64,000 nt of DNA from Escherichia coli (GCF_050920415.1 NZ_CP169309.1); one strand, 5' to 3'. Shown: positions 25,210 to 25,634, counted from the first letter of the stretch. Notes: a model not told the origin generated them from the sequence alone. Program-made: numbers and translations.

Positions 25210-25238
25210 TTGAAATAAAAGAACATAAGAGGTATAGA
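25210..25238 (+). promoter_or_regulatory. Candidate sigma70 promoter upstream of islet ORF
   Basis: TTGAAA, 17-nt spacer, TATAGA, about 48 nt upstream of the ATG at 25287; sequence inspection only. Confidence 0.3.
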
Positions 25239-25286
25239 TATCTCCACAGCAGACATTACATCTAAAAGATCACCAAACCAGACATT

Positions 25287-25634
25287 ATGATAAAAAAGAT
25301 TTTTATAACGTCTTTAAGTATCCTCTGTATGGGGGTAATTGTGGATTATCCTCATATCGACAGCAGAATATCGACAAACGAAATAATCAATTGTCTTTCC
25401 AAGACTATGCAGAAAAGTGGTTATATAATGGATCTAAATGGAACTAAACTACCAATTAATGCAAAAGAATTCGCAACATACAAAATGTCAAAATACACCG
25501 GTTCATTCTGGATAGAATATTCAACAGAAGGAAGGCCAACAAGAGATGTTGGTATAATAAATGCAACAAATGATAGTTATAATATCTTGAACGATACATT
25601 GCAATTTTGTAGCAATATCATGGCAAAATATTAA
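25287..25634 (+). CDS. Hypothetical 115-aa protein with N-terminal hydrophobic signal/anchor-like segment
   Basis: ORF MIKKIFITSLSILCMGVIVDY...; AT-rich, Asn/Ile/Lys-rich composition atypical of flanking core genes; no recognisable motif. Confidence 0.45.
   Translation: MIKKIFITSLSILCMGVIVDYPHIDSRISTNEIINCLSKTMQKSGYIMDLNGTKLPINAKEFATYKMSKYTGSFWIEYSTEGRPTRDVGIINATNDSYNILNDTLQFCSNIMAKY

Follow-up and report, generated by a model that had tools for sequence, protein, structure and literature searches.

A candidate moron in a decayed lambdoid prophage at serT of Escherichia coli, encoding a small, probably exported protein of an uncharacterised family

Morons are genes, located mainly in the late region of phage genomes, that differ in composition from both the phage and its host, that have a promoter of their own independent of induction, and that are dispensable for the phage but beneficial for the host (PMC8065619). 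Both stx and nanS-p are morons of lambdoid and Stx prophages, where they occupy the interval between the Q antiterminator gene and the lysis genes (PMC8065619). The gene described here lies downstream of Q, in the interval that holds stx in Stx phages. In DLP12 and PA-2 the porin genes nmpC/lc, and in Qin the csp genes, are further morons. We have analysed an AT-rich ORF of 115 codons plus a stop codon (positions 25287..25634, plus strand, with an ATG start) in a stretch of 64,000 nucleotides of E. coli DNA, which will be referred to as the window. This gene resembles the known morons in its location in the late region downstream of Q, its deviant GC content (31%), its stand-alone character, its candidate promoter and its presence in a minority of related prophages. 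In contrast, its sequence and fold are unrelated to those of any characterised moron product, it faces the late operon whereas stx and nanS-p are read with it, and it has no terminator of its own that could be found. That the gene is a moron for an exported protein appears very probable. The fuller account, a lysogeny-expressed moron for a Sec-exported, disulfide-bonded periplasmic binding protein, is in our opinion the best explanation of all the data and is put forward with moderate confidence.

The position of the gene was the same in all five Escherichia prophage loci examined (L003, L009, L014, L015 and L016), i.e. downstream of and antisense to the Q gene (PF03589), and ahead of the tRNA and lysis genes in those loci that have them. 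It is located directly beside Q in L014, L015 and L009, the last of which (from an O166:H15 strain) shows the order Q, ORF, tRNA-Gly/Ile/Arg and lysis genes. In L003, an intact prophage of strain ST866, the order is Q, a methylase fragment, the ORF, tRNA-Arg/Gly, a SASA (nanS-p-type) esterase gene, holin and lysozyme, and in L016 a methylase gene and small genes are placed between Q and the ORF. The latter homologue is adjoined on the same strand by a PmrD-like gene (L016 6849-7172, plus strand), which makes a second moron at that locus. These five loci, together with the att-type repeats that bound the remnant present in the window, assign the gene to the late region of a phage genome. Its composition, with 31.3% GC overall and 29.6% at third codon positions, contrasts with that of the left part of the remnant (48-51%) and of the nearby core genes (about 50-56%). 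The gene was carried by only 27 of 5,426 complete E. coli genomes, which suggests that it is dispensable for the phage. No intrinsic terminator was found downstream of the gene, and shuffled sequence folds as well as the 3' region does (z = 0.51), but such a terminator is not obligatory because the review of these genes says that morons 'may have' one (PMC8065619). When 50,697 phage records were searched by tblastn, a single weak match to a Salmonella phage fragment was obtained (36.7% identity, E 2e-6), and no toxin, effector or receptor gene was a consistent neighbour across the homologue loci examined.

The sequence-only reading of this region had described the ORF as independent cargo set among core genes. 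The first part of this description agrees with the behaviour of the gene as a stand-alone unit antisense to its neighbours in the lambdoid prophages examined, and with the presence of relatives in Salmonella, both on megaplasmids and in a chromosomal islet. The gene is accessory, as proposed, but what carries it is a decayed prophage; it has not been inserted directly between core genes. In the RefSeq annotation of the E. coli MFDS1022581 chromosome, which is 100% identical to the window over 23200-26250, the core gene to the left of this region is hyaA, and those to the right are yccA, tusE, yccX and rlmI. The interval between hyaA and yccA contains the intact serT tRNA-Ser gene (23292-23379, plus strand) and a remnant of 2,649 bp enclosed by two copies of the serT 3' end. 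The left att-type copy (23325..23421, plus strand) consists of the 3' half of serT and its terminator, and the right copy (25974..26070, plus strand), a displaced partial serT 3' end with terminator, constitutes the right end of the remnant upstream of yccA. The two copies form a 97-nt direct repeat of 85% identity whose members are 2,649 nt apart, start to start, and such a duplicated serT 3' end is what the integration of an element into a tRNA gene leaves behind.

Between the att-type repeats we found an Ail/Lom outer-membrane protein gene fragment in the left part (23638..23862, minus strand; annotated in RefSeq and matching PHROG 108, Lom, with E=1e-24), a 139-aa ORF with a weak tail-fibre match, the prophage tRNA-Gly (anticodon UCC; 24786..24856, minus strand) and tRNA-Arg (anticodon UCU; 24860..24936, minus strand), both called by ARAGORN, Rfam and RefSeq, the ORF under study, and a C-terminal fragment of an integrase pseudogene (25699..25869, plus strand; RefSeq). 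These contents place the ORF in a heavily deleted lambdoid prophage. The orientation of the ORF opposite to both tRNA genes, of which tRNA-Arg is its divergent neighbour, was as first described, and so was the GC contrast with the core genes, but the immediate flanks turned out to be prophage debris (the Lom fragment, the tRNAs and the integrase fragment). Two large internal deletions would have shrunk the serT prophage to 2.6 kb, sparing the Lom fragment, the tail-fibre-like ORF, the tRNA cluster, the ORF and the integrase stub. An internal deletion has placed the stub some 60 nt downstream of the ORF, and colinearity with the intact prophage L003 stops near window position 25694.

The window allele was indexed in 88 blocks of the assembly collection, and all eight places listed, which came from 23 contigs, corresponded to the same serT remnant with the gene intact in each, one of them showing an IS element in the neighbouring 132/139-aa ORF. 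Because the protein sequence is identical across the contigs, little time for divergence has passed and the survival of the ORF in the remnant may be due to chance. Strain N96 and several draft genomes harbor a second, intact lambdoid prophage in tandem at the left end of the remnant. The remnant also contains a full-length match to the STnc100 sRNA family (24284-24476, minus strand; 111.7 bits, gathering threshold 47) that overlaps the 5' end of the 139-aa ORF, and the equivalent DNA of L003 immediately precedes the nanS-p-type SASA esterase gene.

The codon use of the ORF is similar to that of the other prophage alleles. Arg is encoded only by AGA or AGG (three codons) and Ile by ATA in 8 of 16 cases, codons that are almost absent from the core genes yccA and rlmI. 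Of the adjacent tRNAs, Arg-UCU reads AGA and Gly-UCC reads GGA/GGG, and a decayed tRNA of the ileZ type, with anticodon CAU, would be of the AUA-reading kind. This third tRNA (about 24937-25012, minus strand), placed directly upstream of tRNA-Arg, shows the anticodon loop CTCATAA (CAU, as in ileZ of Stx phages) but a damaged T-arm and acceptor, and it was called neither by ARAGORN nor by the Rfam tRNA model; the related prophage L009 has an intact tRNA-Ile within its cluster. Judged from codon counts, the ORF and the tRNAs appear to be two functional units that survive in the remnant and are matched in codon use, and the match may also be a mere effect of shared AT-richness.

A small family, of about 30 clusters in all, emerged from a search of 5.8 billion sequences together with a HMMER scan of all 1.84 billion representatives. 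The Escherichia alleles are 61-83% identical to the ORF product and the Salmonella relatives about 30% identical, and the full-length members, of 106-134 aa, can be aligned from end to end. Two giant proteins (P0012 and P0017) that gave 18-19 matched stretches in the search of representatives are repetitive and were left out as spurious. The homologue of Salmonella, with 2,481 indexed blocks, is widespread and was found between yedF and fliE in the five places listed, and further relatives are encoded on Salmonella plasmids of 246-500 kb. With profile E values of 1e-36 to 1e-38 the yedF-fliE protein is truly homologous; it has the same length, with a signal peptide, the cysteine pair, a GxFW motif and a Foldseek TM of 0.81-0.87, but it shares only about 30% identity with the E. 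coli protein, and its gene is chromosomal and widespread rather than prophage-borne and rare, with a GC content of 46%. This homologue, which may correspond to STM1967, is likewise uncharacterised and, therefore, transfers no function. The STM1967 tag was found in no paper, and guessed tags in other serovars gave nothing relevant. In the databases the protein is named 'putative exported protein' or, wrongly, '50S ribosomal protein L1', a mislabel that is widespread in UniRef and NCBI entries (e.g. Salmonella L004 10001-10375), and the Salmonella gene models often begin at upstream codons (MHSRSQK...) before the likely true start MIK. The lipoprotein YedD, encoded by a neighbour of the homologue in Salmonella, was discarded as a relative by an hhalign probability of 0.2%.

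The genomic surroundings of these relatives raised the question of whether the exported product acts in host colonisation or motility, as a virulence or fitness factor in the periplasm or secreted, or as a periplasmic protein associated with the flagellum, rather than in protection. The wide distribution of the Salmonella homologue and its location in the flagellar region in each of the places listed would be in agreement with such a role. The same applies to a member on a plasmid-like contig beside chaperone-usher fimbrial genes, to the distant homologue P0021 (L020 660-5414), whose gene closes an operon that also encodes an HMW1C-like adhesin glycosyltransferase, DUF2919 and a CaiF/GrlA-type regulator, and to the prophage slot, which is that of stx and nanS-p in Stx phages. 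However, the Salmonella gene follows the yedF terminator and converges on fliE, and thus it is not co-transcribed with the flagellar genes; no convincing sigma-28 promoter was seen for it, and the neighbours differ from locus to locus so that none recurs. We consider a colonisation or motility role unlikely. As to the box GCCGAAAA upstream of the Salmonella gene, its -35 region matches that of a sigma-28 promoter at only 4 of 8 positions and no claim is made for it.

Structure prediction, which had been proposed on the basis of the sequence, yielded a confident model of the mature domain. With an alignment of 21 sequences, AlphaFold2 modelled residues 20-115 at a pLDDT of 92.4 and a pTM of 0.84; the full-length protein with a 7-sequence alignment gave a pLDDT of 56.7 and was unusable. 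According to the alignments and the model, the mature domain (about 99 aa; 25335..25631, plus strand) would be a beta-alpha-beta4-alpha unit with the topology beta1-alpha1-beta2-(beta)-beta3-beta4-beta5-alpha2. C36 is located in helix alpha-1 and C108 in the C-terminal helix alpha-2 of the model, and the two residues probably form a disulfide bond; their placement fits a periplasmic disulfide formed by DsbA. The fold predicted is a generic alpha+beta sandwich that appears KA1/TBP-like, of a kind that usually serves binding, and no catalytic motif is evident in the protein.

That no motif could be recognised in the ORF product by eye was borne out by the profile searches. Neither the query nor any of 21 members matched Pfam, DUF3568 included, and NCBIfam gave no match either (TipC reached 15 bits, with a cut-off of 30, in one member). 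PADLOC showed no match to the query, PHROG no significant one (PHROG 14737, of unknown function, at E 0.024-0.079 only), and the search of PDB sequences with the family profile nothing below E 0.37. At the level of structure, the BFVD viral library contained no match at E<=0.001, and Foldseek against AFDB50 retrieved the own family, then a few enterobacterial 'lipoproteins' (best E 5e-5, TM 0.74, 23% identity) and then DUF3568. Identity to proteins with the KA1/TBP-like fold (the KA1 domains of MARK, AMPK and Chk1, the VCR of METTL16, and the N-terminal domains of RnlA and LsoA) is 2-14%. Whereas those domains are cytoplasmic modules of larger proteins, the protein studied here is free-standing, predicted to be exported and equipped with a conserved cysteine pair. 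The modelled resemblance is one of fold only and does not argue for homology or for a shared function. A related sandwich fold is present in small envelope lipoproteins such as DUF3568/Flpp3 of Francisella, the N-terminal domain of BamC and the enterobacterial 'Lipoprotein' entries of AFDB, but the family lacks a lipobox and the matches to DUF3568 are weak (E 0.04-0.06, TM 0.5-0.57).

The N-terminus of the protein consists of MIKK followed by a stretch of 15 hydrophobic residues, IFITSLSILCMGVIV, which confirms the hydrophobic start reported for the ORF. A Sec signal peptide is predicted at residues 1-16 (MIKKIFITSLSILCMG; 25287..25334, plus strand), with a K-rich n-region and an h-region of 10-15 residues, a Kyte-Doolittle mean of about 1.8-1.9 over residues 6-21, and a deduced cleavage position. 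The signal- or anchor-like character that had been attributed to this segment extends to nearly every full-length homologue, where the n- and h-region architecture is kept and the sequence itself is poorly conserved. Such an architecture maintained while the sequence drifts would be typical of signal peptides, and the product is probably exported to the periplasm. We infer Sec export, cleavage and the C36-C108 disulfide for this protein.

The segment could instead remain uncleaved, so that the product would be anchored in the inner membrane as a type II protein or be a lipoprotein rather than a soluble periplasmic protein. In this regard, the best cleavage motif of the window allele is C-M-G|V, poor at -3/-1 and without the textbook A-x-A, a cysteine is present within the hydrophobic segment (SILC), and the nearest AFDB50 structures outside the family are named 'Lipoprotein' (E 5e-5 to 2e-2, TM 0.65-0.77) and are joined by DUF3568 lipoproteins. 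Nevertheless, several homologues have good sites of the A-x-A type (AYA|D in P0018, LAAA|R in Salmonella and TGA|V in P0004), and the h-region, of about 15 residues only, is too short for a typical membrane anchor. The lipobox [LVI][ASTVI][GAS]C is absent from the window allele because the -1 residue of SILC is Leu, which discards the lipoprotein reading, and the h-region Cys is missing in P0008, P0010, P0014 and P0018. An anchored or lipidated product is quite unlikely.

Export also depends on the start codon, since the RefSeq product WP_024166241.1 is a shorter protein of 97 aa that begins at GTG 25341 and lacks the signal segment. If this were the true product, it would be cytoplasmic and the upstream hydrophobic codons would be an untranslated leader. 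PGAP picked 25341 in MFDS1022581 and the equivalent GTG in ST866, and a G-rich sequence resembling a Shine-Dalgarno, ATGGGGGTAAT (with a GGGG motif), is found 3-10 nt upstream of this GTG, whereas no Shine-Dalgarno sequence precedes ATG 25287. On the other hand, PGAP itself is inconsistent between strains, with products of 97, 101 and 129 aa, and the two invariant cysteines suit an oxidising compartment. Moreover, the 18 upstream codons are open, K-rich and hydrophobic in nearly all full-length homologues, including the Salmonella ones with about 30% identity. ATG 25287 is preferred as the probable start because these 18 codons are open and the signal architecture is kept even where the Salmonella DNA can no longer be aligned, and a cytoplasmic 97-aa product has, in our view, a low probability.

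The coordinates and the unusual composition of the ORF were confirmed, the most common of its 115 residues being I (16), S (11), T (10), K (9) and N (9), and the ORF could be established as a real gene under purifying selection. Its full frame is kept in the homologues, down to about 30% identity, and C36, Y46, G72, W75 and C108 are invariant across the family alignments. The window and L003 alleles differ at 45 nucleotides, 27 of them in third codon positions, with a dN/dS of 0.18, and over all computable pairs the values were 0.18-0.66, i.e. below 1 throughout. The two observations that had been named as capable of overturning the gene, a non-conserved frame and a known non-coding element, were therefore not made, the second because the Rfam covariance models gave no match at E<=1 over 25210-25634, the nearest hits being the tRNAs and STnc100 at 24284-24476. 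Although AT-rich DNA, the missing Shine-Dalgarno sequence, terminator and family match, and the location in a decayed element might point to a chance open frame in non-coding prophage DNA (late-leader or antisense) or to a dead pseudogene, either is highly improbable given a frame and length kept across more than 20 diverged sequences with dN/dS <1, invariant Cys, Tyr, Gly and Trp residues, a fold predicted at high confidence and no Rfam match.

Two further features of the coding sequence were observed. The central 90 nt of the ORF (window 25441-25530) are 90-97% identical to L016 8150-8240, with flanks of 63-77%; the L016 allele is otherwise 61% identical at the protein level, and the few differences in the central block are mostly non-synonymous. 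This pattern suggests, from the comparison of the two alleles, either mosaicism by recombination or a constraint on the nucleotide sequence itself. Inside the ORF, the minus strand has a hairpin resembling a terminator (25552-25536), which was dismissed as chance, with one found and 1.3 expected, and which lies over the conserved EGRPTRD codons.

Because the ORF is oriented against the late operon, it must have a promoter of its own. The promoter-like element pointed out in the sequence-only reading, TTGAAA-17 nt-TATAGA (25210..25238, plus strand), is an exact match that ends 48 nt before the ATG, and its TTGAAA box and flanks are kept in the window, L003 and L016 alleles, with 77-80% identity between the window and L016 in the block and only 50-60% in the spacer and 5' UTR beside it. 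By consensus, however, the element is no better than chance. A consensus scan of 24400-26300 gave 5 promoter-like sites, and 7.0 +/- 2.3 were expected in shuffled sequences; in that interval the scanner did not report TTGAAA-17-TATAGA, because TATAGA lacks the final T. The conservation of the block makes it plausible that this candidate sigma-70 element is the promoter. The 5' UTR also contains a 19-nt direct repeat (25240-25258, ATCTCCACAGCAGACATTA, and 25269-25287, ATCACCAAACCAGACATTA; 29 nt spacing), the second copy of which ends at the start codon. Both copies are present in the L003 allele and one has been lost in L016, and the repeat could be a regulatory site or a chance match.

Taken together, the results are best accommodated by a model in which the gene would be transcribed in the lysogen from its own promoter, probably the conserved TTGAAA-17-TATAGA block, and not with the late genes. 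In intact prophages, late transcription from the promoter downstream of Q would oppose the gene, but Q has been deleted in the window and, therefore, nothing opposes its transcription there. The 115-aa precursor would be exported by Sec and cleaved around residues 16-19, and, once free in the periplasm and oxidised, the mature protein (about 11 kDa) would fold as a compact beta-alpha-beta4-alpha sandwich whose two helices are probably tied by the C36-C108 disulfide. The protein would act through binding, most likely as a factor of the envelope that protects the carrier cell, and its target might be an incoming agent that acts in the periplasm, as for an inhibitor or immunity-like factor, or a superinfecting phage that would be blocked. 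Such a binding and protective role is deduced from the lack of a catalytic motif, the fast evolution, and the stand-alone occurrence on prophages, megaplasmids and the Salmonella islet. As a specific function, the protective envelope role is a tentative prediction.

The element itself is of an ordinary kind, a prophage moron for a small exported protein, and comes from an uncharacterised family. A more far-reaching and rather doubtful proposal is that the gene founds an uncharacterised family of periplasmic disulfide-bonded binders that mobile elements of Escherichia and Salmonella spread as stand-alone protective genes, each an orphan inhibitor or immunity factor against a phage, a bacteriocin, a T6SS effector or a host enzyme, present in the Shiga-toxin slot of prophages and fixed next to fliE in Salmonella. 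This work corrects the annotation, since truncation deprives the RefSeq models of the signal peptide, and the '50S ribosomal protein L1' label of the Salmonella proteins is false. A small protein family is defined as well, which occurs only in Enterobacteriaceae, has no Pfam or PHROG assignment, has a fold predicted with confidence and, within lambdoid prophages, keeps a remarkably constant place in the stx interval of Stx phages. If it had no such protective role, the protein would be one of the many products of prophage ORFs of unknown function. The lysogenic-conversion genes of the stx interval have repeatedly proved medically relevant, and a periplasmic product made from this slot in the lysogen would therefore be a reasonable candidate for phage-exclusion or envelope-defence assays.
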